From an uncultured virus (IMG/VR IMGVR_UViG_3300042526_000204) (taxonomy: Duplodnaviria > Heunggongvirae > Uroviricota > Caudoviricetes): a DNA stretch of 64,000 nt. Location of the stretch: the IMG/VR virus record IMGVR_UViG_3300042526_000204; one strand, 5' to 3'. The notes beneath the pieces were generated by a model. It saw nothing but the letters and a program-made list of their open reading frames with translations. It was not told the origin of the DNA and ran no database searches. Shown here piece after piece: positions 22,917 to 46,300 of the stretch. A program made the translations under genes and the position numbers. Position 1 is the stretch's first letter. Every line of letters starts with the position of its first letter.

Positions 22917-23945
22917 ATGAACTTGTTTCAATATAATTCAGATAAACTTGATAGAAAAGGATTTATAAGTAAAAAAAGCATCTTGTCATTAGTTACTCAG
23001 GAACAAATATTTGAATTAGTGTTCAAGTTTAAACCTGTTGAATATGAGTATGTTGTTTCTCCTTTAAGGAATGATGATGTTCCAGGCTGTTGGTTTAGTT
23101 TACATGATAATGGAATCCTTTATTTTGTAGATTTTGGTACTGGCAGAAGACACAGTGATTGCTTTAATATAGTACAAGACTATTACAAACTTCCTAATTT
23201 CTATCTAACTTTAGAATACATCTATAACTCTTTAATTAGAGGTAAAGAAGAACTAAAGCCAATAGAAGCTAAGAGGGACATTCAAAGAGATGTCAAAAAG
23301 AAAGTCAAACTCCTAATAGAAGCAAGAGCCTTTGATAGCAGAGATGCTCAATTTTGGTCTCAATATGGCATCAGAAAGAAAGATTTAATTGAAGATAGGG
23401 TTTTTCCTGTTCACAGATTATATGCTTTAAACACTAAAACAGGAAATCATGCTATTGAATGCAGAGATATTGCATACAGTTACAATGATTTTCCTGATTC
23501 TAGAAAGAAAATCTATTTTCCTTTAAGAGAAGGTAAGAAAAGGTTCATTACTAATTGTAGTCAGAATGATGTAGGTGGCATCAATTCTTTACTCCCTTAT
23601 GGTAGGGAACTAATAATTACTAAAGGCTATAAGGATTATAGAGTACTGAAGAATCATGGTAAGAATGTGGTTTGGTTTCAAAATGAGGGTATGATACCCA
23701 ATGATTTAATCTTAAATAAGTTGGTTAAACCTTATATTAATGTCATTGTGTGGTTTGATAATGATCAACCTGGTATCACAGCTTCAGAGAAAGTTAAACA
23801 ACATATCAATACTATGTTTCCAAGTAAGGCTAAGAATTTGTGGCTGCCTGAAAGAGGATTGGATTTTGGAATTAAAGATCCTTCTGACTGTAAGGCTAAA
23901 GATCCAATCTATTTTGAACAATTTCTTAAAACATTTACTGAATGA
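22917..23945 (+). CDS. DNA primase (Toprim), crAss-like
   Basis: SPLRNDDVPGC...YFVDFG, IITKGYKD, WFDNDQPG, KDPSD. Confidence 0.85.
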   Translation: MNLFQYNSDKLDRKGFISKKSILSLVTQEQIFELVFKFKPVEYEYVVSPLRNDDVPGCWFSLHDNGILYFVDFGTGRRHSDCFNIVQDYYKLPNFYLTLEYIYNSLIRGKEELKPIEAKRDIQRDVKKKVKLLIEARAFDSRDAQFWSQYGIRKKDLIEDRVFPVHRLYALNTKTGNHAIECRDIAYSYNDFPDSRKKIYFPLREGKKRFITNCSQNDVGGINSLLPYGRELIITKGYKDYRVLKNHGKNVVWFQNEGMIPNDLILNKLVKPYINVIVWFDNDQPGITASEKVKQHINTMFPSKAKNLWLPERGLDFGIKDPSDCKAKDPIYFEQFLKTFTE

Positions 23946-24481
23946 ATTTCAATCATATTCATTATTCTTGGGGACCTCTTCTGAGAGAATTCAATACAGA
24001 TGCTTTTCTTTACTTTAAAAATGAAGTTCTCCCAAGAGAGAAATACTACCCTGAAGCTGATAAAGTTTTCAGGGTTTTTTCTATGCCTGTGTCTGCTATT
24101 AAAATAGTAGTCATTGGTTCATGGAAGCACCCTAATATCAGAGAATTAGAAAAGCAAGGCTTGTTCTGGCTACCTGTTTCTTTAACATCAGGTGTAGATG
24201 TGGACCACACAGAATATTGGGAGCCCTTCATTAAAAAGGTAGTATATTTTATAGCCAAGAGTAATCCTACTATTTGGCTATTACCTACCTTAAAAGCACA
24301 AAGATTTACAGCTAATCTACCTGCAAAATCTATTTATAATGTGCTAAGATATGATGATAGCACTATTCATCAAATTCCTATCAATGTAGATTACAACTAT
24401 GTGTTCAAAGGCATCTATGTCAATACTGAACATGTAAACATCCTCCTAAAAAGATTAGGTAGGGACACAATTAATTGGTAA
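23942..24481 (+). CDS. Degenerate family-1 uracil-DNA glycosylase-like protein
   Basis: YYPEADKVFRVF...IKIVVIG, KQGLFWLPVSLT and HTEYWEPF align with UNG, but GQDPY and HPSP are absent. Confidence 0.7.
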   Translation: MNFNHIHYSWGPLLREFNTDAFLYFKNEVLPREKYYPEADKVFRVFSMPVSAIKIVVIGSWKHPNIRELEKQGLFWLPVSLTSGVDVDHTEYWEPFIKKVVYFIAKSNPTIWLLPTLKAQRFTANLPAKSIYNVLRYDDSTIHQIPINVDYNYVFKGIYVNTEHVNILLKRLGRDTINW

Positions 24482-24496
24482 TCAAATTTAAAAATC

Positions 24497-25180
24497 ATGA
24501 GTGAAGTACAAGCTCCAGTTTCTCAAGAGAGAGAAATTACAATTTATGCCACTAGAGGTGGTCAAATGAAGAAAATCACAACTGCTGTAACTACTTGGGG
24601 AGAATTGCAACCCCTAGTAAGAAGAGAAGGTTTTGATTTATCTTCTTTATTAGCTGCAGAAAACATTACTAAGACAGATTTAGTAAATGATTTAGCAGTA
24701 TTGCCAACAACTGCTTTTAGATTATTTCTAAGACCAAAGCAGACTAAGTCTGGTGCTTATAACAGAAAAGAATGCTTTGAAGTTATCAAGATTCATTTAT
24801 TGAATCACCCTGAAGACAAAGCAAACTTTAGTATTAATGGTAGAAATGTAACTCAGTTACCTACTGGTACAGTACAAGAATTAGTAGCTAAATATTGCCA
24901 AAAAGGTGAAATAGCCTCTAGTAGTGTTACAACTACTGCTTCTACAACAGTTACTGAGAAGATAGTGTATAAGACTGCTGAGAATAATACTGATTCTCAA
25001 AAAGTTCAAGCAGCTATTAATCTAATCTCTTCTTTAGAAGGTTATGATTATTATCGCAAGGCTCATAAGTATTTAGATAGACTTCTTGATGAAGTTTCTA
25101 TGCCAGAAGCTTCAGAAGCTCCAGAAATGGAAACTGAAGAAGAAGCTATAGCTAGAGAAGCTAGAGAATTAGGTTACTAG
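24497..25180 (+). CDS. Ubiquitin-like (beta-grasp) domain ending ...KQTKSG(86), with a C-terminal extension
   Basis: Strand-strand-helix (TWGELQPLV) pattern, final strand FRLFLRP followed by KSG. It is the first gene of the E2-JAB-E1 cluster. Confidence 0.65.
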   Translation: MSEVQAPVSQEREITIYATRGGQMKKITTAVTTWGELQPLVRREGFDLSSLLAAENITKTDLVNDLAVLPTTAFRLFLRPKQTKSGAYNRKECFEVIKIHLLNHPEDKANFSINGRNVTQLPTGTVQELVAKYCQKGEIASSSVTTTASTTVTEKIVYKTAENNTDSQKVQAAINLISSLEGYDYYRKAHKYLDRLLDEVSMPEASEAPEMETEEEAIAREARELGY

Positions 25181-25187
25181 TAATAAC

Positions 25188-25212
25188 AAAGGGTTAGGAA
25201 ACTAACCCTTTT
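25188..25212 (+). terminator. Intrinsic terminator after the Ubl gene
   Basis: AAAGGGTTAG-GAAA-CTAACCCTTTT. Confidence 0.75.
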
Positions 25213-25225
25213 AATTTTATATCCT

Positions 25226-26425
25226 ATGGAAATAAATGATAATACATTGCTTTCTTCTAAGTTTAGAAGAAAAATTCATAATGCAATGTTGATGGGAACT
25301 CATAGAAATAAGAAGTTTCTTCAGTGGCTATTTGATAAGGATTATTTGCATTTTTATAGTGGAGATGTTAGTACAAGATCTAAAGAAGAATTCTTTAAAC
25401 TTCTAGATTTGTTTGAAGCTAAATACAAAGGTAATTGGGACTTAGGTTTTGAACAAGCTGGAAGCATTGCTCTTAAACCTTATTTTAAAGTTATTTATCC
25501 TGAGTTTACTATTACAAATAGTAATGGAGAAAGTCACTTAATAAAAGATTTAGTGGTAATTCATAGAGTAGCTTTTAGTGATAGAAGTTATTCTGTTTAC
25601 ACTCTTCAACCTCAAGGTGGTAGACTTAGTAAGACTAAACTAGAAATAGCTAGTGGCTATCAACAAAGCCATTTACCTGGTCATTCAGATTGGATAAACC
25701 TTCCTTTTCATACAGAAAACTTTTGTGTAGGTGGAGATACTGATGTAAATAGAATGCTAGCTGAGTTTGAAATAGAAATGGATTGGGATAGATATGAGTT
25801 GTATTTGTTTTGTGTAGATTCTATGGTTACTTGGGAATCTTTAGAAGGTGTTCCTTACAGAAAAATGAATACTATAAAGAATGCTTTAAACTCTATGGTT
25901 ACTAGTGTAAGTGAATCTTATTCAAATGATCTTGTAGCTCATATTATAGCTGATAAAATTCCTTTAAATGTTGACTTTTATGTTGCAGATGGAATATTTA
26001 GGATTAAACCTAATGAAAAAGCTAATGAGTTTATTAAGAATATTATTCTACAGAAATACACTTATAGTATTTACAAGTCTTTATTAGTAACTAGAGTTCC
26101 TAATACATTTGATCAGTTTTTACAAATGAAAACTGAAAACTCTCCTACAAAAACTTTTGAAGTAGTGGCTACAAATGCTTATACTATCATTAAAGGAAAG
26201 AAAATGTTTGCCAAAAACATTAAAGAGGATAGCAGGAATCAAAAACCTACTCCTATAAAAGAATATATTGTATATCCTAAATTTTTAAAAAATGTCCTTA
26301 ACAAACTTGAATCAAGAATCTATAGCAAGGCAATTACCAAGAGTGGAATTAAAATCTATAATTCCCTTAGTGATGCCGATAGAAGTATTGCACCAGATCC
26401 AGTATCTATGCAAGTCAATTTCTAA
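25226..26425 (+). CDS. Prokaryotic E2-like (UBC-fold) protein
   Basis: YQQSHLP...NFCVGG, the His...Cys-x-Gly arrangement of prokaryotic E2s, located between the Ubl and JAB genes. Confidence 0.6.
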   Translation: MEINDNTLLSSKFRRKIHNAMLMGTHRNKKFLQWLFDKDYLHFYSGDVSTRSKEEFFKLLDLFEAKYKGNWDLGFEQAGSIALKPYFKVIYPEFTITNSNGESHLIKDLVVIHRVAFSDRSYSVYTLQPQGGRLSKTKLEIASGYQQSHLPGHSDWINLPFHTENFCVGGDTDVNRMLAEFEIEMDWDRYELYLFCVDSMVTWESLEGVPYRKMNTIKNALNSMVTSVSESYSNDLVAHIIADKIPLNVDFYVADGIFRIKPNEKANEFIKNIILQKYTYSIYKSLLVTRVPNTFDQFLQMKTENSPTKTFEVVATNAYTIIKGKKMFAKNIKEDSRNQKPTPIKEYIVYPKFLKNVLNKLESRIYSKAITKSGIKIYNSLSDADRSIAPDPVSMQVNF

Positions 26426-27536
26426 AGTAGAGTGGTCAGGAGCTCTCTTTTATACTACAGAGGGTAGTATTGAAAATCCTGAAACATTTAAAATTACTTT
26501 AAAAACAATCCTTCCTTTAGATATGGGCTCTCAAGCTTATACTGAATACAATCTTGATGAAAGATTTATGGATTTTATTGAAGAAGATTTTGAAGAAAGA
26601 TGTACTTGGAAACTAGGTCATATTCACTCCCACAACACCATGGCAGTATTCTTTTCAGGAACTGATATGGCAGAGTTAAATGACAATGCTCCAGCACATA
26701 ATTTTTATCTTTCTCTTATTGTAAACAATTATATGGACTTTATTGCTAAAGTTGCTTTCATTGGAGAAGCTAAGAAAGATATTAAACAGGTTCCATATAC
26801 AGCTAAGAATGTAGATGGCCATGATTACACTATTGAGAAACAAGACTTTGAAGTTAACACTAAAAAGCTGTTTATCTATGACTGTGACATTGATGCTCCT
26901 ATTAATAAAATAGTTGTTAGTGAGCAGTTTACAGCACAAGTAGCTAAAATTATGGAGCCTAAACCTGTTAAGAAAGTAGAATCTAGATGGCCTGTTACTA
27001 CTCCTACTACAAGAAATGGGTGGCAAAGACATGGTAACAACAATTCCAGGCAATTCAAATCACAAGAAGAAAGGGAAATGGAAAGCTTCAACAAAAGTTT
27101 TCAACAACCTAAAAAGCCTTTTAATAACTGGGAAGATTGGGGTTTACCTGCTACTAACAGTCTTGTAGAAGATTTAGATGTTGAAGAATTAAAATTAGAG
27201 TCTATTTACAATTTTGCTAAAAGTTTGTTTGACTTTACAGGAGGTGCTTTAGATGAAGATGAGATTCTAGAAGATGTTTTAGATGTCCTAGCAGAGTTTC
27301 AATTAACTCCTGCTGAAATTGCTAAATCTGTTATTGAAAGTTATGCTAAAGACTTTAGCAAACATTTTCCTAATGCTAGTGCAGCAGACTTTGTTCAGTA
27401 CACTAATGAAGTAATAGATTTGCTAGAAGATGTCAAAATGTTGTATCCTGAAATAGGGCTAACTATTAAGACTATTAACTCAATGATAACTAAATTTGTA
27501 GAAAGTGAGACAGAGAGATACCACACAGCAAAGTAG
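26292..27536 (+). CDS. JAB/MPN+ metallo-isopeptidase with an extended C-terminus
   Basis: VEWSG...GHIHSHNTMAVFFSGTD, matching the JAMM motif E...HxH-x7-S-x2-D. Confidence 0.9.
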   Translation: MSLTNLNQESIARQLPRVELKSIIPLVMPIEVLHQIQYLCKSISKVEWSGALFYTTEGSIENPETFKITLKTILPLDMGSQAYTEYNLDERFMDFIEEDFEERCTWKLGHIHSHNTMAVFFSGTDMAELNDNAPAHNFYLSLIVNNYMDFIAKVAFIGEAKKDIKQVPYTAKNVDGHDYTIEKQDFEVNTKKLFIYDCDIDAPINKIVVSEQFTAQVAKIMEPKPVKKVESRWPVTTPTTRNGWQRHGNNNSRQFKSQEEREMESFNKSFQQPKKPFNNWEDWGLPATNSLVEDLDVEELKLESIYNFAKSLFDFTGGALDEDEILEDVLDVLAEFQLTPAEIAKSVIESYAKDFSKHFPNASAADFVQYTNEVIDLLEDVKMLYPEIGLTIKTINSMITKFVESETERYHTAK

Positions 27537-28203
27537 ATTTAAAGATGCCCCCTGGTTTCCTAGACATGATGAATTATGCATGGTAGGTGGTGCAGGTGGT
27601 ATTGGTTCTTGGTTATGTTATTTCTTAACTAAGATTGGTTTCAAAATTAATCTTTATGATTTTGACACTGTAGAAGATCACAATTTAGGTGGTCAATTAT
27701 TCTTTCAAGAAGATGTAGGAAGAAATAAAGTACAAGCAGTATCAAGAGTAATACAAGCTTTTTGTAATGCTCCTCTTTCTACTTTTAATGAAAGAATTGA
27801 TTTAAATACAATGACTCATTACTATGTGTTTTCAGCTTTTGACAACATGAAGGCCAGAAATGATTTGTTTCAAGTCTGGAAAAAGTCTTGGATTAGAACC
27901 CCTGTAGGTGTAACTCCTATATTTATTGATGGCAGGCTAGAAATAGAGCAGCTTCAAGTATTTTGTGTAACTCCTAGTAATGCAGATAGATATGAGAAAG
28001 AACATCTCTTTTCTGATTCTGCAGTTGATGATGCACCTTGTACTATGAAGCAAAGTTCTCATACAGCAGCTATGATTGGTACTATTATGACCTCCTACTT
28101 TACTAATCATATTGCTAATACTTATGCAGGAGAGACTATCAGAGAAGTCCCTTTCTACTATGAATTTGTAGTTCCTATGAACTACTCTGCATCTGAATTA
28201 TGA
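27505..28203 (+). CDS. ThiF/MoeB/E1-like activating enzyme
   Basis: GGAGGIGS, YDFDTVEDHNLGGQ, NKV, AFDNMKAR, IDGR; candidate catalytic Cys in DAPCTMK. Confidence 0.9.
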   Translation: MRQRDTTQQSRFKDAPWFPRHDELCMVGGAGGIGSWLCYFLTKIGFKINLYDFDTVEDHNLGGQLFFQEDVGRNKVQAVSRVIQAFCNAPLSTFNERIDLNTMTHYYVFSAFDNMKARNDLFQVWKKSWIRTPVGVTPIFIDGRLEIEQLQVFCVTPSNADRYEKEHLFSDSAVDDAPCTMKQSSHTAAMIGTIMTSYFTNHIANTYAGETIREVPFYYEFVVPMNYSASEL

Positions 28204-29201
28204 GAGTTACATCTCATACAGTAGGAAGTTACAATATGGATCCTTTTAAGAAAACTGCATTGTGTGCTAACACTCATATTCCTATTTATGCAAATCACAC
28301 AATTTCTTATGAGCACAATTTTGAAAATACAGTAAGCCTTATGTTCTATGGTAGACCTAAATTTGATTCAGGGTGTATTAGAAAAGCAAATACTCTTAAG
28401 AATCTTAAGACTGCTTTAGAAAGGTACATTGGTCCTGCAAGAATTCCTATTGGAGGTAAAAACTATTTCTTTATGAAAGGAGCAATGTACACTGAGGAAG
28501 GGATTCCTCTTATGGTGTTAGCTATGCCTCAAAAAGCTTTTAAAGATCCAAATATCAAAAAGTTCTCTGACTTTAGATATGATCAAGAAGTCAACCCTGT
28601 TGACTATAAAAATTTTGTTTTGTTTTATTCCACATCTTTCTTTACTAATCCAAGCTATGCTGCTCTAAACAGAAGATTTCAAAAAGAGATACTAATGGAC
28701 TGCTATATAAAAGGTATAGAGGTAAAAGTAATTACCTCATCAGAAATTGAAAAGAATACCTTTGCAAGTTTATTTGAGATCCCTAAAGCTAATTCTGTTA
28801 GCCAATTAGAGGAGTACATGAGTACAGTACTACCAACATATTTATACACAGAGGAAGAGGACACCTTTGTATTTAAAGAGTTGGAAGTGCCACAAGCTCA
28901 AGAAGAGGAATTATCATTAGAAGAAGAAGCTTTATTATTTGACTCTGAAAGCAGTCCTACATTAGAACAGGTACTTAGTGATTCTGCCCATACAGAACAC
29001 ACTTATTTTGTAGGTGTAGACCCTGCTTTCTCAACAAGTATGCCTTTTACATCTTTAACAACTGGAGATTTCCATTTTGTAGACCAACCTAATATTTCTA
29101 TAGGATATCCTGCAGGTGAAATAATTACAGCAGAAGGTACAAGTTGGATATATACTGGTAGAGATGAAAGACCAATAGAGCTAATTGATGATGAAGTGTA
29201 A
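28200..29201 (+). CDS. Hypothetical protein coupled to the E1 gene, with an acidic C-terminal half
   Basis: ATGA overlap with the E1 gene. Confidence 0.55.
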   Translation: MRVTSHTVGSYNMDPFKKTALCANTHIPIYANHTISYEHNFENTVSLMFYGRPKFDSGCIRKANTLKNLKTALERYIGPARIPIGGKNYFFMKGAMYTEEGIPLMVLAMPQKAFKDPNIKKFSDFRYDQEVNPVDYKNFVLFYSTSFFTNPSYAALNRRFQKEILMDCYIKGIEVKVITSSEIEKNTFASLFEIPKANSVSQLEEYMSTVLPTYLYTEEEDTFVFKELEVPQAQEEELSLEEEALLFDSESSPTLEQVLSDSAHTEHTYFVGVDPAFSTSMPFTSLTTGDFHFVDQPNISIGYPAGEIITAEGTSWIYTGRDERPIELIDDEV

Positions 29202-30937: not shown

Positions 30938-31543
30938 ATGGATATTGAGATAGGTAAACTTTATACTAACAGAACTCTTAAGTATTTAGTTCCTGCTCTC
31001 AATTTCTATGGGCCCACTTTGAAGACCAAGCTAAACTTGGTCTTTAAGTTAGCCTTTGGCATACATGATTCCTTGTTGGAAGGTACTCATTTACAAGGTC
31101 AAAAGAATATTTTTATTCTTGTTGACAAACTTGTGAGACCTGATCTATACCAAAACTTTATGGATTGGTTAAAACATCAAGAATATTATGTTACAGACTA
31201 TGCTTATGACTCAATACTTGAGCATAATAGCAGAAAGCAAATGATTGTGATAGCTTTTCCACCTAAGCTAGCTGATATTTATGACAAGTTTTTGCTGGGT
31301 AAGTATAGTTTGATGTACACAAAAGAGGAAATCAACACTTTCTTTGGAGATGAAAATAAAGCTGAAGCAAGGCATGTATTGTGTAAAACACTATTTGCTA
31401 AAAATCAGTTTAAAATCTTAGTCAGAGAAACCTTTGGTACTATACTAGAAGAACAAGATTTTCTAGTAGGTTCTTGGGAATATGATTTACCTCCTAGTGC
31501 AGAAGAAGAATTTTTTAACACTTGGAAACCTTTGGGGAGCTAG
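30938..31543 (+). CDS. Conserved crAss-like hypothetical protein
   Basis: NRTLKYLVP...FLLGKYSLMY. The ATG at 30938 is the likely start. Confidence 0.55.
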   Translation: MDIEIGKLYTNRTLKYLVPALNFYGPTLKTKLNLVFKLAFGIHDSLLEGTHLQGQKNIFILVDKLVRPDLYQNFMDWLKHQEYYVTDYAYDSILEHNSRKQMIVIAFPPKLADIYDKFLLGKYSLMYTKEEINTFFGDENKAEARHVLCKTLFAKNQFKILVRETFGTILEEQDFLVGSWEYDLPPSAEEEFFNTWKPLGS

Positions 31544-31575
31544 TCTCCCCTTAAGTTTTCATTAATATTAATCAG

Positions 31576-33503: not shown

Positions 33504-33749
33504 ATGACACAAGTTCAATTAGATAGGCATCCTTTTGCAAAACACACTTTTTATAAAGGTGTGTACACACACAATAGTGTAGAATATGCTTTTGACTTAA
33601 CTGTAGAAGAATCTGAAAACAGTATTCAACCTAATATTATAGTAGAGTTTGAAATGTGTAGCAGTCTTTTACCTTTTAATTATGATAAAGCTTATAAAGA
33701 AATTATAGCAATTTATTTACCTAATGGAGATCAAGAAGCAGAAAACTAA
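33504..33749 (+). CDS. Hypothetical protein
   Basis: Operon ORF. Confidence 0.5.
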   Translation: MTQVQLDRHPFAKHTFYKGVYTHNSVEYAFDLTVEESENSIQPNIIVEFEMCSSLLPFNYDKAYKEIIAIYLPNGDQEAEN

Positions 33750-34569
33750 GACTTTAGTTACTAGAGATAATAGTAGGAGCAGTGATGCCATTGCTCCTAA
33801 CTTTATCTATGGGTGTTTAGGAGGATGTATGAAGTCTTATTGCTATGTAGCTAGGTATAACCATGACAAGGTTTATATCAATGAAAATACAGAGCAAATT
33901 CTAAGATCTATTTATGATTGGGTAGACACTAAGCCTTGGCCCAAAGAGCCTAATCAAGTAGATGACACTTATTATTGTGTTGATATAGGGTGTAGTACTG
34001 ATGTGCCTTTACACAGTAAACACTACCCCTGGCAACAGGTATTTGACTTTTTCAATACACAATATAAAGTAAAAACTACTTTTGCTACAAAGTATCCTAC
34101 TAAGTTTAAGCTACAAGAGTATAACCTTACTCCAGGTAAGCACAGGATAAGAATTAGTCTTATGCCTCAAAAGATCTCAAGTATCTTAGAACCCAATACT
34201 GACAGCATAGCTGATAGAATTGCTATGATACCTGTACTCCAAACAAAAATGGAGGTGCATATAAACTTTAGTCCTATAGTTTACTACCCTACTTGGTTAG
34301 AAGATTATGAAGAGTTATTTCAACAACTCAAAGGATTAGAATTTAAATCAGAATGTATTTTTGTAACTTATAATAAGAATCAAGCTCAAAGAAATAGCTC
34401 TGATGTTAATTATTACCTTTGGCAACCCAGTATTCAAGAATCTAAAGATTCTGAATATGCTGCTGATAACATTAGGTATGAAAGACATTTTAAGCAAAAC
34501 CTGATAGATGAATTTGTAGCTTTGTACATTAAATATTTTCCTATAGAAAGTATTAGATACATTTTCTAG
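33724..34569 (+). CDS. Spore photoproduct lyase-like radical SAM protein
   Basis: GCLGGCMKSYCYV cluster motif, DIGCSTD, FATK, RIRISLMP, HINFSP, NIRY. Confidence 0.8.
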   Translation: MEIKKQKTKTLVTRDNSRSSDAIAPNFIYGCLGGCMKSYCYVARYNHDKVYINENTEQILRSIYDWVDTKPWPKEPNQVDDTYYCVDIGCSTDVPLHSKHYPWQQVFDFFNTQYKVKTTFATKYPTKFKLQEYNLTPGKHRIRISLMPQKISSILEPNTDSIADRIAMIPVLQTKMEVHINFSPIVYYPTWLEDYEELFQQLKGLEFKSECIFVTYNKNQAQRNSSDVNYYLWQPSIQESKDSEYAADNIRYERHFKQNLIDEFVALYIKYFPIESIRYIF

Positions 34570-37772: not shown

Positions 37773-40700
37773 TATTCTTCTTTTTTAGGTTTTTTCATTT
37801 GATCCTTATCAAACTTAGTTCTTTTTGGTACAAAAACCTTATCTTCTAAATCTTTAGTTAAGTTTTCTTCTCTAATTAATTTTGCAGCTTCTATTTTTAC
37901 TTGTTTTTTAAACAAAGTCATTGTAGCTACAGGAATATCTTCTACAGATTCATATTTCCAAGATTGTAAAACATTATCTAAAGCTATTGGTAACTTAATA
38001 GCCATCTCTGCTTTATACTTTGTTGATGCTTTCTTAAAATCAGTAGTTCTTAGATAATCTTTTGCCCAAGATTTTTTACTTCTTTCTGTTTCAGTTATAC
38101 TTTCAGCTCCCATTCTCCATCCTTTTAAAGGTTTTTTAAATCCTCCTTCAGCTCCTACTTGTCTTACAGTAGCAGGAAGTAAAGCTCCTCTTAAAAATTG
38201 AGAGGTTTTACTTTGTCCCATATTTTTACCAGTTTTAATGATGTCTTCTTCTTCAGGTCTAAGCCAAGCTTCTAAAGCTTTACCTAATTTATCATAAGAA
38301 CCTTCTAAAGTATTTTTACTACCAAAAGTAGTTGCTAGAATAGTGATATCTAAACAAGTATTAGTTTCTTGAAGAAGTCTTTCCGAAACATTAACAGCAA
38401 AATTATAATAAGGGTGCTCTATTTTTTTTCTTTCTTGTTGTGCTTCCCATCTTTTTCTTTGTGCTGAACCTTCTTCTCCTTTTTTTTCTTCTTCTTCATC
38501 AGGAGGTCCAAAAGCAGCTTGAATAGCTAAATTAAAAGCAACTATTGCTAGACTATATTGTAAATTTCTTGCTATATCTCTAGCAGCTAAAGCTGAGATT
38601 TTCTCATTTAATTTACTTTCATTAAGACCTAAAGCATCTTCTCCAGTTTTTATTATCTGTCTTCCAGCAAGCATATTAATAGGAGTAGCAGGAGTTCTTA
38701 AAACAGTTTGTAAAACAAAATTAACTTGTTTTTTCCAAGTTACTACCATTTCATCTTCATCATCTATTAAAGAAGCCTCTCTATTTGTGACACTTCTAAC
38801 AATATTATTAACAACACCTATTCCAGCTAAAGCAGCACCTATAGTTAAAGGTATTGCAGGATTACTTAAAACAAGAGCTCCTATAGCAACTGTAGAACCT
38901 AACATAATACCAGAACTTCCTGAAGTTTTACCTGTAATTGCTTCTAACATAAAACCTTTTTCTACAGTACCTTTTTTAACATTTTTCTGTGCTACTTTCC
39001 ATCTTGAACTTAAGTATTTAGGTAACCAAGTTTTGTACAACATAAGAGGGGCTGTTAAAACATGCCCTTTAATTCTTGTAACTCCTGTATGAGAGTAATC
39101 TCCATTGAGTTCATTTAGGGCTTCTCTTGTATCTCCTTTCCAATCTAATATACTTTCAGAGTTCATGTCTATAAGAGATTTTCTATTTTCAGGAGTATCA
39201 AATTCTGGAGACAACTCTAAATTTCCATCTTTAAGAGTATAACCATTAAATTTACTGCCTGTAAATAGTGGAAACTCATTTCCATTTATATCTTTAATCA
39301 TGTGACCTGTAGCCATACAAAGTATTCCTAAAGTTTGATTAGAGTCTTCTGCCCATTTCATTAATCCCATAGGATATAAAACACTAAACTCTTGTCTTAA
39401 CCTTCCTTCAGCTCTTTCTAACTCTGAAGTTCCATCATTTATAAGAGCCATTCTTTGAGTAAAAATTCTTAGTATTTTAGCTTGTTCTTCCCATTCTTTA
39501 CTGACAAGTTTCATCATGGGTTTTTTATGAATAAAGCTATTACATTTGTAAAAACTTCCTTTAGGCCAGTATTTACCATCTCTATTTCTACAAGCAGCCC
39601 AACCTGCAGCTTTATTAAAAAACTGAGCAACAGGGTTAGAAATTAAGTTTACAGAAACAGCTAATTTTAATGCTACTGCTTGATATACTGTAGATAAGAA
39701 ATAGTCATTACCTAAATTAGACATAGTATTTTCAAGAGAAGCTAAGGTTTCTTCTTCTTTTTTAGTAAGGTTTTCAAGACCTTTAGCGTTTAAAGGAATC
39801 CAAGATTTTAAAGCAAGTTTATAGACTTCTTTTTGTTCTGCTGTAAAAAACTTATAAAACATTCTACTTCTACTAAACTTTTTACGAGAAAGTTTTCTAT
39901 CTATTGCTATAAGAGCTTTACTTACATCGCCATATTGTTTTTTACCTTTTTTATTAAGCAAGACATTATTATAAAAAAATCTCTGTCTTGCCATTTCATT
40001 CTTTCTGTCTTTTCCTAACTTGTCTTTAATATTTTCAGACTCTTCCATATAAAACCTCACTTTATCTTTAGCTAAAGTTCTAGCTTTATGAACAGCAGAA
40101 ATTTCTAATGCAGCTTTAATTACAGTTGCTAGGTTTGTTTTATTATCTCCCTGGTTATCAAAACTAATCCCAAGAGGTGTTTCAATAATATTATCATCAA
40201 AATACTCACTATTAGTTCCTGATAGATTTTTGCCTAAAAAAGTTCTTACTGGTTTTAAAGTTACAACAGCTTTAAGAACTTTAAGTACTTCAGGTAAAGA
40301 AGTAGGTAAACCTTGTTTTAAAGCTCCTTTCCAACCTTTTTCAAGAAGTATATCTGTAATAGTCTTTTTAAAAGAAGGCAAATCTCCAGCAGATATAAAA
40401 ATTCCAGAGCCTCTTAAATTATCTTCTACATGATATACTCCTTTTCTTATAGCAGTATATAAAGCTAAAATATCAGGATTATTTGCAATCTTATCAAATT
40501 CAGTATCAAAGTAATCTGTAGGATTTCCTTGTAAATCTACTTTTCTAGGTATATAAGTATTGTAAGTTAATTTAGCAGTTGCTGTATTAGCTTGAGTTCC
40601 TATACTGTAAGCTACCATATTTCCTCCATTTAGTTTATAGTTTTCTATAAACTTTAAAGGATTAGACCTTGTTTCAAAAATTGTAATGTTTTTTTGGCTT

Positions 40701-43387
40701 TCAGGGCTAAGTTTACTTTGATCTGTTAATCCTTCTTGATCTTTTTTGTATTGAATATACCCAGCTAAATCTTGTTCAAAAGCATCAAGACTATTTCTTT
40801 GAGTTTCTACAATGTTGTCATATTCAATTTGACCTATAGTATTTATTAATTGAGCTTTGTAAGCAGCAGCTTGAGCAGGAGTACCTAATTGATATTTAGT
40901 ATAATTTCCTGAACCATTTTCAATTTCATGTAATAAACCTATGTCAATAAATTCAGTATCATTATTAAGTAAATTAAACTTTTGAGTTAAAAGTTGTTGT
41001 TCTAATAACCAATCTTTGTTTTTTATGGCTTGATAGATTTTACTGTCTAATGCAATTCTTATAGCTTTTATAAAAGAGTTATAATTACCTGTAAATTTTT
41101 CAATTATTTTATCAGCATATTTACCTGGTCTTATGAATAGGCTGTAATCTTCTCCAATAGCTTTTAATGCAGCTACACCTTTTGCTTCTGCAACAGAGAT
41201 TTCAGTTTTAATAACTGTTTGAGCAGCCATCATTCTGTCTTCTTCTATTTCATACTCTAATCTCATTAAAGAATCTAATACATTGTTTTTTCTAACAATG
41301 TTTTCTCCTGTAGCAAAAAGATAACTTTCAACTTGAGTAATATCACTAAGTTCTTTTTTAAGTTCCTGTCTTACTTCTTCTAAAGATTGAGATTTAAAAA
41401 TAGACATAAGTTTTGATTCATGTCTTTCAAGTAACTCCATTACTACTACTTCTCCTGCATTTTTTACTAGCATTTGAGCTTTATCTGTAAGTGTTCTAAC
41501 TTCTTCTAACACTTTTAAAACTTCTGTTGGATAAAAAGCTTTTGGATTTAAGTAAGGTGTCATTGTATTACCTATTCCTTTTTTTATATCTCCCTCTTTA
41601 GTAGGATCAGAAATCTTCTTCATAAAGTCAAGTAGATCTTTAGCTAAGAAGTAGTTATCTATAGTAGGGTTTTTTAGTAAAGCTGAAACTGTATTTACAT
41701 CTTGTTTAAAAAATCTTTCAATAAGTTCTAACTTATCTACATCAGGTTTATTAAAGTCATAAATATCTGAAATTAGATTGTCTTGAAGATTTCTAAATTC
41801 TTTTATTTTAGCATCAAACTTAGTTGATTTAACTTTATTTTTTTGTGCATACAAGTTTTTTAAAGAAGCCTCTACATGTATTAGCATAGCTTCTTTTTGT
41901 TTTAAGTATGCATCATAATTAGGTTGAGTTACTCCTATTGGAATATTTGCATTTGCTATAGCATTTTCCCCTTCTTCTAAAATCTCTTGTTCAAGTTCTT
42001 TTAATCTAGCTCTAAAATAGTCTTCAGCTTGAGCAGCAGAAGTAAAACTAACTTTTACTTGACCTCCAAATTCAGTAGTAGCTAAAATGGCCCCTGGTTC
42101 TTTAACTCTAGCTAATTCAGCTTCATAAGCAAGAATCTTTTTAATGGTAGAGTTCATTTCAGAAATCTCATCTTGAAGTTCTTCTATTTCTTGATTTTCT
42201 TCTTGAGTATAATCTTCTGCTAAATATTCTTCAACAGTTTTTCCTTCAATTAAATCAGACTCTTCTATATTAGTTGGTTGTTCTAATAAGTCCAATAAGT
42301 CCATTTGAGCAAAAAAGTCTAGGATTTCTTCATTTGTCACTGGAACATCTTCTGTTATTGAATCTGGATTAGGAGTAACTTCAGTAGATAAGATATTACT
42401 TGCTATATTAAAAGCTTGTTCATAAGCAGTGTCTTCTGATTGTAATCCAATAATACTTAATATTTTATCAAGTATTTCAGCAAAAACATTTGGATAAGTT
42501 TTAGTGTTAGAAGCTGGGATGCTTTTAAGATCTTTTATAAAATCTGAGTTAGTGAAAATAGCCACAAAAAACTCATCCATAGTGTAGTAAGCATGAGTTT
42601 CTGATAACTTACTATTCTCTTTGGCATAGTTATAAAGATTTTCAAAATCTTTAATTATGTCTGCATTAGCTACACTTAGTTTACTCCAGGACAAAGCATG
42701 AAGAATCTCATGTAAAACAGTAGACTCAGCTTGACCCATAGGATACAAAGCTTTGTCTGCTACAGTAATACTCTTATCTGTAGGATTATAGTATGCTGTA
42801 GAAGGAATTCCTTCAGCATTTAATATAGAAGCATCCTGTAATCTAATAGGTATATTTTGATCTCCTACTATAGAAGAAAGAGCCTTAGCTAACTCTTTTA
42901 AAGGGTGGTTTGATTCTGAGATAGTGGTCAGAATATTTTGTACAGAAGTTTCTTCTTTTCCTTCAAAAAGTCTTTCTTGTAAATTTTCATCTATCCTAGG
43001 GGCTCCTCTTTTTACAAGAGTTTCTTTTTCAAATACAGGCACTTTAGTAGTGACTGGTATTCCTTCATTAGTAATATTCCAAGTGTATATATCTGCTTGT
43101 CCTTGTTGTTCAAAAACTACAAATACATTTGAATTATTTTTTTTATTGTAAGATTCAATTTTCTTTTTAACAAGACTAGTTTGGAGACCTGATAATTTTT
43201 TCTTATTTATACCAAGTCTTTTAGACATAGGAGTAAAACTAAAAATTTGTTCTTTATTAGGAAATTTGTCAAGTCCATTTACATCCTGCCAAAGAGAAAC
43301 TTTAGATTGAAGAACTGGTGTACTTAATCCTGTCTCTCTTCTTAAATCTTTAAATTCTTTAGTATTTGTATTTACACAATTTGCCAT
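37772..43387 (-). CDS. Giant virion cargo/ejection protein with an N-terminal zincin domain and C-terminal hydrophobic segments
   Basis: 1871 aa; LHEILH at 42698-42712 with a downstream DEF; hydrophobic GSTVAIGALVLSNPAIPLTIGAALAGIGVV. Confidence 0.8.
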   Translation of the reverse strand: MANCVNTNTKEFKDLRRETGLSTPVLQSKVSLWQDVNGLDKFPNKEQIFSFTPMSKRLGINKKKLSGLQTSLVKKKIESYNKKNNSNVFVVFEQQGQADIYTWNITNEGIPVTTKVPVFEKETLVKRGAPRIDENLQERLFEGKEETSVQNILTTISESNHPLKELAKALSSIVGDQNIPIRLQDASILNAEGIPSTAYYNPTDKSITVADKALYPMGQAESTVLHEILHALSWSKLSVANADIIKDFENLYNYAKENSKLSETHAYYTMDEFFVAIFTNSDFIKDLKSIPASNTKTYPNVFAEILDKILSIIGLQSEDTAYEQAFNIASNILSTEVTPNPDSITEDVPVTNEEILDFFAQMDLLDLLEQPTNIEESDLIEGKTVEEYLAEDYTQEENQEIEELQDEISEMNSTIKKILAYEAELARVKEPGAILATTEFGGQVKVSFTSAAQAEDYFRARLKELEQEILEEGENAIANANIPIGVTQPNYDAYLKQKEAMLIHVEASLKNLYAQKNKVKSTKFDAKIKEFRNLQDNLISDIYDFNKPDVDKLELIERFFKQDVNTVSALLKNPTIDNYFLAKDLLDFMKKISDPTKEGDIKKGIGNTMTPYLNPKAFYPTEVLKVLEEVRTLTDKAQMLVKNAGEVVVMELLERHESKLMSIFKSQSLEEVRQELKKELSDITQVESYLFATGENIVRKNNVLDSLMRLEYEIEEDRMMAAQTVIKTEISVAEAKGVAALKAIGEDYSLFIRPGKYADKIIEKFTGNYNSFIKAIRIALDSKIYQAIKNKDWLLEQQLLTQKFNLLNNDTEFIDIGLLHEIENGSGNYTKYQLGTPAQAAAYKAQLINTIGQIEYDNIVETQRNSLDAFEQDLAGYIQYKKDQEGLTDQSKLSPESQKNITIFETRSNPLKFIENYKLNGGNMVAYSIGTQANTATAKLTYNTYIPRKVDLQGNPTDYFDTEFDKIANNPDILALYTAIRKGVYHVEDNLRGSGIFISAGDLPSFKKTITDILLEKGWKGALKQGLPTSLPEVLKVLKAVVTLKPVRTFLGKNLSGTNSEYFDDNIIETPLGISFDNQGDNKTNLATVIKAALEISAVHKARTLAKDKVRFYMEESENIKDKLGKDRKNEMARQRFFYNNVLLNKKGKKQYGDVSKALIAIDRKLSRKKFSRSRMFYKFFTAEQKEVYKLALKSWIPLNAKGLENLTKKEEETLASLENTMSNLGNDYFLSTVYQAVALKLAVSVNLISNPVAQFFNKAAGWAACRNRDGKYWPKGSFYKCNSFIHKKPMMKLVSKEWEEQAKILRIFTQRMALINDGTSELERAEGRLRQEFSVLYPMGLMKWAEDSNQTLGILCMATGHMIKDINGNEFPLFTGSKFNGYTLKDGNLELSPEFDTPENRKSLIDMNSESILDWKGDTREALNELNGDYSHTGVTRIKGHVLTAPLMLYKTWLPKYLSSRWKVAQKNVKKGTVEKGFMLEAITGKTSGSSGIMLGSTVAIGALVLSNPAIPLTIGAALAGIGVVNNIVRSVTNREASLIDDEDEMVVTWKKQVNFVLQTVLRTPATPINMLAGRQIIKTGEDALGLNESKLNEKISALAARDIARNLQYSLAIVAFNLAIQAAFGPPDEEEEKKGEEGSAQRKRWEAQQERKKIEHPYYNFAVNVSERLLQETNTCLDITILATTFGSKNTLEGSYDKLGKALEAWLRPEEEDIIKTGKNMGQSKTSQFLRGALLPATVRQVGAEGGFKKPLKGWRMGAESITETERSKKSWAKDYLRTTDFKKASTKYKAEMAIKLPIALDNVLQSWKYESVEDIPVATMTLFKKQVKIEAAKLIREENLTKDLEDKVFVPKRTKFDKDQMKKPKKEE

Positions 43388-43389
43388 AA

Positions 43390-46300
43390 TTAGTTACATC
43401 TTTTAATTCTGTCTTGTTCTTCTTGACTTAAATCATCCCACTCTTCTTGAGTAATACCTAAATCTTGAATAGGAGTTCCAAAGTTAGTTAAAATATTTGA
43501 GATCATTGCTTCTCCTCCTTGTCCTTCAAGAAGTTCTTTCTTAAGTTCTTGTTTTCTTTCTTCAGAAAGACTTTCTATTAAATCAGACTCTTCTTGACTA
43601 AAATCAAAAATAAATTTGTCTTCTAATAGCATTTGTTTATACAAATTCCCTGCTCTTGAGTCTTCTTCAGATAACTCAACTTGATTTTTATCAGTGGTTT
43701 CTTTATTAACTTCAGTACTTTCTCCATAAGTAACTGCTACATTGGCATTAGGTAATGAAGGTTGCACTATAGTTTTAACAGGTATTTTAGCTCTTTCTTC
43801 TTGAATAAACTTCATTGAAGCTAGAATTGATGCTCTAGCTATAGAATCTTCTTTTAGTCCTGGAAAGATTTCATCTAACATGTTAATAAAGAAGTCTTCA
43901 ATTTTATTTAAAATAGATTTACCTGATTTTAAATAAGGAACACTTTTAAACTCATTGTGAAAATCTTCTGAAGTCATAGCTACAGAAACAAATTCAAATA
44001 CATTTGTAAGACCATAAATTACATTAAGTTCTCTATCTGTGTATTCTATTTGAGGGTTACCCTTGATAGAGTTATTAGCTATTTTGTTTTCTAAAGTTGT
44101 TACTTCTGCTTCATAAACTTTTCTTGCAGCATTGTAAGCTTCAAAAAGAGAAGTCACATGAGCAGGAATAGATACATCTGTTCTTAAAGTCTTACCTGAA
44201 TTATCAAAGTAATCTGTTAAATGACTTACAGCTACTGAGTGAAGAATTTCATGGATAATTAATTCAGAACCTTTCTCTTTAGAAAGTTCTTGTAACTTAT
44301 CTTTAGATAAAGAGATCAATATTTCTCCATTACTATCAGGTCTGCTAGTGTGTCCTGCTAATCCTCCTGGTAAAGATTCAGAAATTCTAATACTTACTAA
44401 ACCTTCTTTTAATAAAGGAGTTAACCACTTGGCAGTTTCAGCTAAAAATTTCTGTTCTTCAGAAAAATTTAAGTTCTGAATTTGCTCAAGTAAAGCTTCT
44501 GGAGTAGTAATACCATCCATAGTAATTGCTTCTAAGATTTTAGTATCTTCTGCAATAGTTGGAGTATCTTCAATAGTATTATCAGTGTTAAAAATAGAAG
44601 TAAGTTCTTTTTGTTTATAAGAGTATTCTTTAATACCTGACTGACCTACAATATCTATTCTTCTATATTCAGTTAATCCTACATTTTCATATAAGTTAGT
44701 TACTTTTTTACCATCTTGAGTAGTATCATAAGTAATAAATTTAGGAGATTTGAACTGATTATTTTCATAAAGTAAAACTCCATTTTCAGTAAACTTTACA
44801 TTTTTAGACCAAGCTCTTTTAGCTTTCTTAGGATTGTTTTGAAAGTATTGTCTTGTAAAAGAAGCAATATCATTCTCTTGAATACCTAAAGCTTTATCAA
44901 AGAAAGTTGGAGAATTTTCTCTATTATTAAACATTTGTAACTTTCTGTTAATAGGTACAAACATATCCTTACCTCCTTTGTTTTCTATTTGGCCCATTAC
45001 TTCCATTAATTGTACAGGAATAAATTTGCTAAATTGAGTAGCTTCTTGCACTCCTCCTTCAAGAAAAGAATAAGCAACTAAATCTTCTGCTAATTGTCTA
45101 GTAGAATAAGGTTTACCATTTCTAGGAGGCAAAGGAAGATTAGAAAGTATTAATTCAGGAATAGCATTGTAAAGAATCTCTTCATCTAAATTATCAGTAG
45201 CTGTATTATTATACTTAATTAAAGAAAGTTCTCCCTCAGCCCCTGTTACATAAGAAAATCTAGAGTATAAAGCATTTTTTAATACAGAATTTACTCCTCT
45301 TTTATTAGTTGTTGAACTAGATAAATCTCTTAAATAAGTTGATACAGAAGTATTACTATCTGAATCTACAAAAGTTTCTTGTCTTTTTGCTTTAGTTTCT
45401 CCTATATAAGTATTGTTGTTAGGATTAGAGTTAATATACTTAATCATTTCTTCCATAATTTTATGGAATTCTTTTATATAAACACTGTCAGCCATTGTTT
45501 CTGGGTTTAAACCTTGAGACAATAAAATTTGATTAATAACAGAATTAATACCTACATCATCATAAGGAAAGAAACTCTTAAATAAAGTGTTACCAGTTTG
45601 AAGTCCATGTATTGTAACATGTCCTTGGGGAGTATTAGGAGTTACATAATAACTACCAATTTTATACATATCATCAGTAATAACTTTTGGATCTTTTTCA
45701 AAATCACCTAAAAGCTTACTTATGTTTTTAATAGGACTATCAGGAAGATTTGCTAGAGCTCTGTAAGAAACACTAGATTCAACTAAAGATTTACCTAACT
45801 CATTAGTATTTAATACTTTTTGAGCTTTAGAAACATTTTTAGCATGCTTATCTAACTCTATAAAAGTAATTAAAGCATCTACTTGAACCATATTATCTGA
45901 AATACCTTGACTAGCAATACCATCATACATAGCTTGACCTGTCAAAGATTTTCCAGGTTTATAGACAGTGCCTGTATCAGCATATCTAAAAGTAGTAAAA
46001 TTTTTACGATCAAAAGAAGACATACTCTTGTCTTTACCAAATGTAATTACACCTCCACTTAGTTTTTCAATGCTGTCTTTTTTTAATTTATTTACATCAA
46101 AGAAATCATTTGCTAAAATTCCCTTACTGTTTTTAATTTGCTTATTATATTCTTTAATACTTGGTTGAGAAAGAAGTAAATAAGGAAGAGCCATTTTTTG
46201 TTTCTCTTTTTCTCCTGGAACAGAAACAAGGTCAGTATCAAATCCTAACATAGTCAATAAAGAGTCTACATTAATAGTTTGATCATTAACTCCTACTCTT

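Follow-up and report, generated by a model that had tools for sequence, protein, structure and literature searches.

The window, by which we mean the whole 64,000-nucleotide stretch analyzed here, covers the opening 64 kb of a virus record of 78,153 bases (83% complete). It carries a run of five genes encoding a precursor with a ubiquitin-like (Ubl) domain, an E2-like protein, a JAB metallopeptidase, an E1 and a fifth protein, with a terminator-like hairpin between the first gene and the second (Table 1). Genes for PolA, helicases, a primase and a UDG-like protein lie upstream. The closest named phages are Flavobacterium Fipvunavirus, in which the E1 is 57.7% identical and the gene order is the same in Fpv3, and the same cassette was found in gut Steigviridae (crAss001 gp79-gp75, cr111_1, cr106_1, cr126_1, DAC15 and cr85_1). 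The order Ubl, E2-like, JAB, E1, fifth gene was kept in Fipvunavirus and gut Steigviridae wherever the locus was long enough. A scan of 185,579 prokaryote genomes returned five JAB relatives, all on MAG contigs, and three of the four that were checked had the Ubl gene too. The MAGs whose contigs carry cassette genes in L394, L395, L397 and L398 are labelled Bacilli, Clostridium and Acholeplasmatales; these contigs may reflect mis-binned phage or a broader range of hosts. The UDG-like gene of the window (23942-24481) encodes 179 aa with no Pfam match, the annotated UDG of Fpv3 has 249 aa, and the shorter gene may be degenerate.

Table 1. The Ubl cassette in window coordinates, with the basis of each assignment.
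Feature	Position	Strand	Basis and remarks
Ubl precursor gene	24497..25180	+	227 aa; homologue of crAss001 gp79 and Fpv3 ANB40457; PHROG 15560
Ubiquitin-like beta-grasp domain, residues 10-86	24524..24754	+	AlphaFold model; VIA-align Z 9.2; Foldseek
Lys84-Ser85-Gly86, predicted JAB cut after Gly86	24746..24754	+	Invariant Gly; split and short forms
T1, residues 88-134, small helical domain with N-x-T-x-x-x-T motif	24758..24898	+	Model and alignment; absent in some lineages
Thr/Ser/Val low-complexity linker, variable	24905..24985	+	pLDDT < 50
T2, residues 166-201, helical pair	24992..25099	+	Model; conserved in close homologues
T3, acidic stretch and terminal amphipathic helix (EEEAIAREARELGY)	25130..25177	+	Type kept family-wide
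Intrinsic-terminator-like hairpin and T-rich tail	25188..25219	+	Stem 25188-25211
E2-like protein, 399 aa, weak fold call	25226..26425	+	His149 and Cys167 invariant in 38/38 representatives; model
JAB/JAMM metallopeptidase, 414 aa	26292..27536	+	Glu47, His112, His114, Ser122 and Asp125 invariant, 33/33
Minimal ThiF-family E1, 232 aa, without rhodanese domain	27505..28203	+	PF00899, E 1.9e-16; 29/29
Fifth cassette gene, fast-evolving, candidate target adaptor	28200..29201	+	Position kept; PHROG 15446, unknown

The initial annotation had placed a candidate conjugatable Gly86 inside the first protein, with a 141-residue tail behind it, and both statements can be read directly from the open reading frame. 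Gly86 is encoded at 24752-24754 in the context ...RPKQTKSG/AYNRK..., where the slash follows Gly86, and 141 residues lie C-terminal to it. An AlphaFold model of the precursor from a 60-row alignment had a mean pLDDT of 80.8 and a pTM of 0.43. In the Ubl part (pLDDT about 90), strands at residues 12-18 and 24-29 were followed by a helix at 34-43 and strands at 51-55 and 74-80. When residues 7-85 were compared with ubiquitin-like folds using VIA-align, the best match had Z 9.2 and an rmsd of 2.2 Å over 73 residues; 34 chains scored Z ≥ 8, and ubiquitin-fold chains occurred throughout the best 50 rows. A Foldseek search of the PDB with the precursor again gave ubiquitin-like matches, the best at E 1.0e-3 and none at E ≤ 0.001, and Pfam and NCBIfam searches returned no family naming the protein. 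The two features expected of a beta-grasp modifier were thus found in the model, the fold itself (residues 7-85, Z 9.2) and a Gly on an extended tail, since the last strand (74-80) is followed by the invariant Gly86. On the strength of this model, the open reading frame encodes a ubiquitin-like domain ending at Gly86.

Behind the Ubl domain, the model contained helices at residues 90-134, a disordered segment at 137-158, a helical pair at 166-201 and a terminal helix at 214-224, the segments between these modules being modelled with low confidence. The initial annotation had described the tail as a helical domain, a Thr/Ser linker and an acidic end; these three parts are present, but the second helical pair at 166-201 had gone unmentioned. 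Among close homologues, 16 positions of T1 never vary and T3 is almost unchanged. In distant homologues, the mean share of the top residue was 0.53 in the Ubl domain, 0.36 in T1, 0.15 in the linker, 0.21 in T2 and 0.39 in T3. The drop in conservation that had been anticipated after KSG was accordingly seen as a dip over a few residues, but T1 and T3 were conserved again. Tail length ranged from 52 to 252 aa across 60 representatives with <70% identity, and cr126_1 gp_24977 (L138:4501-5427) carries a ribosomal bL12 C-terminal domain (PF00542, E 5e-12, residues 158-220) in the linker between T1 and T2. Searches with the tail found no family or fold, with no usable match in the ESM Atlas and fold-search rows filled by the Ubl domain, and T1 had no PDB sequence match at E < 0.15; T1 may resemble HeH/Rho-N. 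Because T1 and T3 are conserved and the tail is kept as a gene in phages with a split precursor (see below), sequence comparison identifies the tail as a conserved functional cargo protein and not a throw-away pro-sequence.

Conservation of Gly86 across homologues had been set beforehand as a test of the precursor reading, and the outcome was clear: the residue was kept in 120/120 close homologues (the best 120 of 616) and in 141/141 distinct long ORFs from fetched loci. Among the 60 representatives with <70% identity, P1 was Gly in 60, P2 was Ser in 56 and Ala in three, and P3 was Lys in 55 and Arg in four, whereas P1′ was Ala in 28 and the commonest residue at P2′ was found in at most 16. 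Residues that are held before the Gly and variable after it form the one-sided pattern expected of a protease site. The more distant L376, L379 and L381 have KQG where others have KSG. A profile search limited to proteins of 40-160 aa returned 77 homologues, 19 of which stop exactly at Gly+2 and two at Gly+1, with one each at Gly+3, +4, +6, +8 and +9; 32 end beyond Gly+9, and 19 lacked a motif match. In L380, a 79-aa Ubl ends in KSG-E, the form known from BilA, and there is no tail gene, the hairpin and then the E2-like gene following directly 3′. Comparison across lineages thus presents the tail as a modular protein kept for its own sake, yet dispensable in one lineage.

The reactive Gly could instead be the penultimate residue of the precursor (...ELG-Y), which would make the whole 226-residue protein the modifier. 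Gly226 was present in 117/120 close homologues, but crAss001, cr111_1 and many other phages lack it, variable extensions follow it, and it lies on a helix rather than at the end of the beta-grasp fold; we consider this reading very improbable.

The most direct view of the junction came from natural split alleles. A pattern scan and a metagenome scan together gave 115 loci, 84 with the Ubl gene; 31 of the 35 pattern-scan loci were dropped as chance matches, as no Ubl was present. The gene was fused to the tail in 76 of the 84, split in six, broken by a stop in the linker in one and open in one. In cr106_1, KIKSG-KF-stop is followed by a NUMOD4-HNH gene, then by the tail, which forms an ORF of its own behind an A-rich leader, and lastly by the hairpin, whereas a fused, near-identical sister (P0199) reads KIKSG-AMSRAEL. 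The NUMOD4-HNH element thus brings a recoded xSG, two residues and a stop, plus the new A-rich leader and start for the tail. The DNA context of splits is available for these six loci in three lineages, cr106_1 itself being one, and 23 short proteins are known as proteins alone. The tail ORF was retained in 6/6 split loci, even where the HNH gene carries a stop or is shrunk to 246 nt; the HNH gene is already broken in three of the six, and next to decayed copies the split stays in place. In six pairs from one split lineage, dN/dS was <1 for both halves (0.17-0.65 for the tail and 0.06-0.53 for the Ubl, from 1-10 changes per pair). On the tree, split forms were scattered beside near-identical fused forms with 14 changes, at least eight of which were forced by well-supported branches, a distribution that homing predicts. 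These observations indicate that an HNH homing endonuclease repeatedly split the Ubl gene two codons after the Gly. An intron was considered as the source of the split alleles and rejected on the grounds that no Rfam intron model matched and that the flanks of the HNH ORF are just 1-16 nt.

The NUMOD4-HNH element of the split alleles is free-standing (L137:1725-2928; L201, L218, L231, L243 and L244). In L065, L074 and L080, the stop of the fused Ubl gene is separated from the E2-like gene by 520-600 additional bases; this insert begins with a NUMOD4-like ORF start and marks a second insertion site near the Ubl gene.

HNH genes also cut phage coding regions into two polypeptides in Aeh1 nrdA/mobE and T4 gene 60/mobA, and PMC2988022 describes these as split enzymes whose halves reassemble. 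Because endonucleases target conserved sequence and split enzymes can reassemble, proteolysis is not proven by a split at KSG. The present case differs from the Aeh1 and T4 pieces in that the split lies at a predicted protease site and recurs many times, and in that the element supplies the recoded xSG-plus-two-residue end together with a new tail start. Reassembly of split enzymes (PMC2988022) would also suit a precursor that is never cut, namely an adaptor of several domains whose N-terminal ubiquitin-like domain serves interaction in the Rad23/UBX style and whose Gly is a structural hinge. In line with such an adaptor, UBX and UBL domains that are not conjugated are among the best fold matches, viral Rad23-like proteins match from end to end, and the tail is conserved. 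A hinge does not account for a Gly that stays invariant even where the chain ends one or two residues later and where there is no tail, nor for one-sided conservation around it; moreover, a free C-terminal carboxylate is what an E1 requires, and no second Ubl gene turned up in the cassette. An uncut adaptor is therefore improbable in our judgment. The cut after Gly86, for which the natural splits are the best evidence, very probably takes place and is made by the JAB of the cassette. The reading of the gene as a precursor proposed in the initial annotation is well supported by comparison, through the invariant Gly, the variable P1′ and P2′, the Gly+2 splits, the tail-less Gly+1 form and the intact JAMM motif.

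Catalytic residues of the downstream enzymes were counted in representatives with <85% identity, with L131 and L133-L136 (E1 only) left out. The JAMM zinc motif E-x(n)-H-x-H-x7-S-x2-D was intact in 33/33 (E47, H112, H114, S122, D125), whereas profile matches were weak: Prok-JAB in Pfam was under the cut-off (E 0.019 here and 4.9e-4 in crAss001), and CSN5 and archaeal Rpn11-like profiles matched at E 0.02. The E1 is a single ThiF domain in which GxGxxG, Asp52, Lys75, Asp113, Arg118 and Cys179 were invariant (29/29). Invariant columns of the E2-like protein comprised N98, R133, S148, H149, C167, G169, E204, S205, G208 and P210; no conserved His follows the Cys, and the invariant His precedes it by 18. 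Compared with UEV, UBC and RWD chains, the E2-like model (pLDDT 87) gave at best Z 6.0 with an rmsd of 3.9 Å, a Z that is common by the scale of the tool. At least 30 of the top 50 fold rows were E2, UEV or RWD by title, BubB included, and Foldseek matches had E ≥ 0.048, below significance. The gene at 25226 is likely E2-like on this model, although a best fold score of only Z 6.0 makes the assignment likely rather than proven.

Other features of these genes varied between phages. The JAB gene starts 134 bases inside the E2-like gene (26292-26425), and overlaps of 60-130 bases are usual family-wide; L380 has an 11-base gap at this place. In L010:6545-7696 and other loci of the crAss001 type, the E1 carries at its N terminus an acidic, variable extension of 60-210 residues, which is missing from the E1 of the window. 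E1, E2-like and JAB genes are interrupted in single phages by inserts of 0.9-1.2 kb (L001:9028-10807, on the contig of L104; L057:5770-8021; L078:7013-9353), which are probably introns or endonuclease genes.

A Ubl that is cut after Gly86 could also act as a sulfur carrier of the ThiS/MoaD type, with a C-terminal thiocarboxylate that serves a nucleotide, a tRNA or a cofactor. The E1 is of the minimal ThiF type and its best NCBIfam match was ThiS adenylyltransferase (E 3e-14, under the cut-off), MoaD-like chains were among the fold matches of the Ubl (Z 8.8), the cassette sits among DNA-metabolism genes, and JAB maturation of ThiS/MoaD fusions is proposed in PMC1779556. However, the 78-kb record, which is 83% complete, yielded no rhodanese, and neither the 12 proteins around the cassette nor 56 further proteins of the window matched a sulfur-relay family. 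A rhodanese, desulfurase or acceptor enzyme was thus lacking nearby, though host enzymes could supply them. In addition, where the locus extends far enough, the gene after the Ubl encodes the E2-like protein with its invariant His and Cys. We consider a sulfur carrier unlikely.

The initial annotation had also called a strong terminator between the Ubl gene and the enzymes, and this terminator-like hairpin proved to be real and conserved in position. The stem at 25188-25211 has 10 pairs and a GAAA loop and is followed by TAATTTTATA, the stable hairpin and U tract expected of an intrinsic terminator occupying 25188-25219. The 51-nt junction folded at -14.2 kcal/mol with a z of -3.5, and 0/200 shuffles were as good. 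Terminator-like sites were called by our own hairpin-plus-T rule at distinct junctions. A hairpin and T tract followed the Ubl gene at 78/84 junctions but seldom or never the primase (0/80), UDG (0/55), E2 (1/64), JAB (1/70) and E1 (3/76) genes, gene 5 (1/43) and the SSB-position gene (5/46), a contrast that shows position and not strength because these control genes mostly overlap their neighbours. The hairpin was missing at the remaining 6/84 junctions, among them those of cr111_1 and Dulem virus 41. Stem sequences were unrelated between lineages, and in split alleles the hairpin sits after the tail gene. A second terminator-like hairpin was noted at 31534-31550, where the gene that follows the exonuclease ends.

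Seven RNA runs from two studies were compared as assembled contigs on L012, whose gp79 is 100% identical to that of crAss001. Contigs broke at the hairpin in four of the seven (X2, X3, X5 and X6) and crossed it in three (X1, X4 and X7); adaptor ends are present at two of these breaks, a single study supplied both of the others, and T tract length is variable. Depth was higher upstream of the hairpin (for example 64 versus 14, 105 versus 14 and 262 versus 14), although contig depth cannot rank genes, and in X15, a run of unspecified kind from a related strain, contig depth was flat at about 5-10 around the hairpin. These contigs are compatible with a transcript step at the hairpin, which they weakly hint at. 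In most RNA runs, one long contig spanned the upstream replication genes and the Ubl gene, and the hairpin seems to close an extended unit of replication genes lying upstream, the Ubl gene being part of it. TAnnTTTG is the Bacteroidota promoter consensus. As a conserved box upstream of the Ubl gene it was not found, with occurrences in 8/111 (E2 6/118, E1 3/99); a sigma-70 promoter scan was at chance level, and codon bias did not set the Ubl gene apart (rank 10/41). The gap from the stem to the next start codon (25226) is only 14 nt, and since this leaves little promoter room before the E2-like start, the mRNA of the enzymes likely comes from read-through past the hairpin. Stranded RNA-seq of crAss001 is described in PMC8375218.

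The initial annotation had taken an excess of modifier over catalysts as support for protein tagging, an argument that we do not retain, as an excess would fit a decoy, a tail needed in quantity or a sulfur carrier equally. What argues for tagging is the E2-like gene with its invariant Cys, not stoichiometry. High expression of the precursor would suit a decoy: an abundant Ubl might load or block host E1 and E2 enzymes of type II CBASS or Bil while the JAB frees phage proteins of host tags, and attachment to true targets would be secondary. Host ubiquitin-like systems act against phages, as documented in PMC11601603 and PMC10557695. A decoy, however, needs no private E1 and E2-like genes, and the fixed order and invariant catalytic residues from Flavobacterium to gut crAss phages are more core-like than would be expected of fast-turnover anti-defence genes. 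We regard this function as unlikely too.

In type I Bub (Iyer 6E.1; Ye et al., PMC11601596), as here, a Ubl stands at the front of a longer pre-protein and a JAB cut, predicted in our case, falls right after a conserved internal Gly and frees a second polypeptide; BubCD cuts BubAB after Gly229. The part released in Bub is the E2, whereas here it is an unrelated cargo that is all-helical in the model and the E2-like protein is encoded by the next, separate gene. Bub has a JAB-E1 fusion and a DUF6527 protease, whereas here JAB and E1 are separate ORFs and no DUF6527 match was found among the cassette proteins. Bub uses Tyr/Ser oxyesters and no catalytic Cys, in contrast to the invariant E1 Cys179 (29/29) and E2-like Cys167 (38/38), to which we would assign catalytic roles, and it is carried by the host rather than by a phage (PMC11601596).

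Bil (BilABCD; Chambers et al., PMC10557695) shares separate Ubl, E2 (here E2-like), JAB and E1 genes in the same order, an E1 and E2 based on Cys, as predicted here, and JAB pre-processing after a Gly, likewise predicted here, BilC cutting BilA between Gly97 and Ala98, which resembles the Gly+1 and Gly+2 forms described above. It differs in that BilD is a large IAD-AAD-CYS E1 rather than a 232-aa single ThiF-type protein, in that BilB has a CEHH motif with His after Cys rather than a His 18 before it, and in that Bil serves host defence, acting on phages through tags on a tail protein, without a long C-terminal cargo, whereas the present Ubl has a 141-aa tail and is phage-borne. The PRTRC cassette (Iyer type 6d; PMC1779556) is likewise carried on mobile DNA, Bacteroides included, and joins Ubl and JAB genes to E1-like and E2-like ones with no sulfur-metabolism partners. 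Its Ubl, however, is small and stand-alone with a terminal Gly, whereas the tailed Ubl here had no Prok_Ub or PRTRC C match; its E2 has no upstream His and a His downstream of Cys, the reverse of the arrangement here; and its JAB-N domain has no counterpart, no conserved Trp preceding the JAB core (PMC1779556).

In lambdoid phages, tail assembly protein I and protein K (JAB, NlpC/P60; PMC1779556) also provide a phage Ubl with an internal Gly, a C-terminal domain and an adjoining JAB, but as tail-morphogenesis genes without E1 or E2, whereas the present cassette lies among replication genes. PRTRC models scored far below their cut-offs on the cassette (ThiF 40.8 of 144.75 bits; protein A 12.6 of 101.8). 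The present system would work like the Bil and type I Bub precursors yet falls outside both definitions and that of PRTRC/6d. Eukaryotes make ubiquitin-ribosomal protein fusions, UbL40 and UbS27a/eS31, from which the cargo is released by a deubiquitinase. The likeness to these lies in a Ubl and Gly followed by an independent cargo, and the tail of cr126_1 even has a bL12 domain; they have Gly-Gly, whereas here a single Gly follows Lys-Ser and the usual cargo has no known family, and no homology is implied.

Taken together, the reading we favor, and consider fairly likely on comparative grounds, is that the JAB cuts after Gly86, the E1 and E2-like proteins attach the tag via Cys thioesters, and the tail works separately. 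The adjacent JAB would cut the precursor into a free tag and a tail that acts as a separate protein. Adenylation of the freed tag by the E1, a thioester on E1 Cys179, passage of the tag to E2-like Cys167 and isopeptide bonds to target lysines would follow, a sequence of steps that we consider probable. The hairpin may stop most transcripts of the upstream replication-gene unit, so that the precursor would exceed the enzymes made by read-through, as the present data weakly suggest. As a guess, the fusion would ensure a 1:1 supply of tag and tail, the acidic terminal helix of the tail (T3) would be a docking peptide, and the targets would be host or phage proteins handled during the DNA-replication phase. 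More tentatively still, crAss-like phages, among them the cultured gut phage crAss001, might run a complete ubiquitination pathway of their own as a core replication-phase module, its tag being made as a ubiquitin-fusion-style polyprotein with a working cargo and homing having split it exactly at the scissile bond, while the bL12 domain would hint at docking of the cargo on host machinery, for instance that of translation; this broader picture is possible, but we would lean slightly against it.

Type II CBASS, Bil and Bub, the ubiquitin-like pathways so far characterized in bacteria, belong to the host and are linked to defence against phages, and a phage-borne, Cys-based Ubl-E2-JAB-E1 set would, if confirmed, reverse the roles of host and phage. 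Precursor processing itself has precedent; what draws interest is a phage-borne pathway in a cultured, abundant gut phage. The cassette has gone unrecognized in the cultured phages crAss001, DAC15 and Fpv3, where its genes are annotated as 'hypothetical', 'metalloprotease' or 'thiamine biosynthesis'. A search of the literature, mostly open-access texts, found no publication on the cassette, although supplements of crAss papers may annotate it, and ThiF, thiamine and metalloprotease gave no match in PMC7886860 or PMC6235969. Because these three phages are all in culture, the cut, the conjugates and the targets are directly testable; the natural split alleles are ready-made constructs and mark the tail as a separate protein that merits study.

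Two long ORFs elsewhere in the window, of 4731 aa (43393-57585) and 1871 aa (37775-43387, minus strand), had no Pfam matches and sit where the virion RNA polymerase subunits of crAss-like phages would be expected. A spore photoproduct lyase-like radical SAM gene (PF20903, E 4e-13) was found at 33724-34569.
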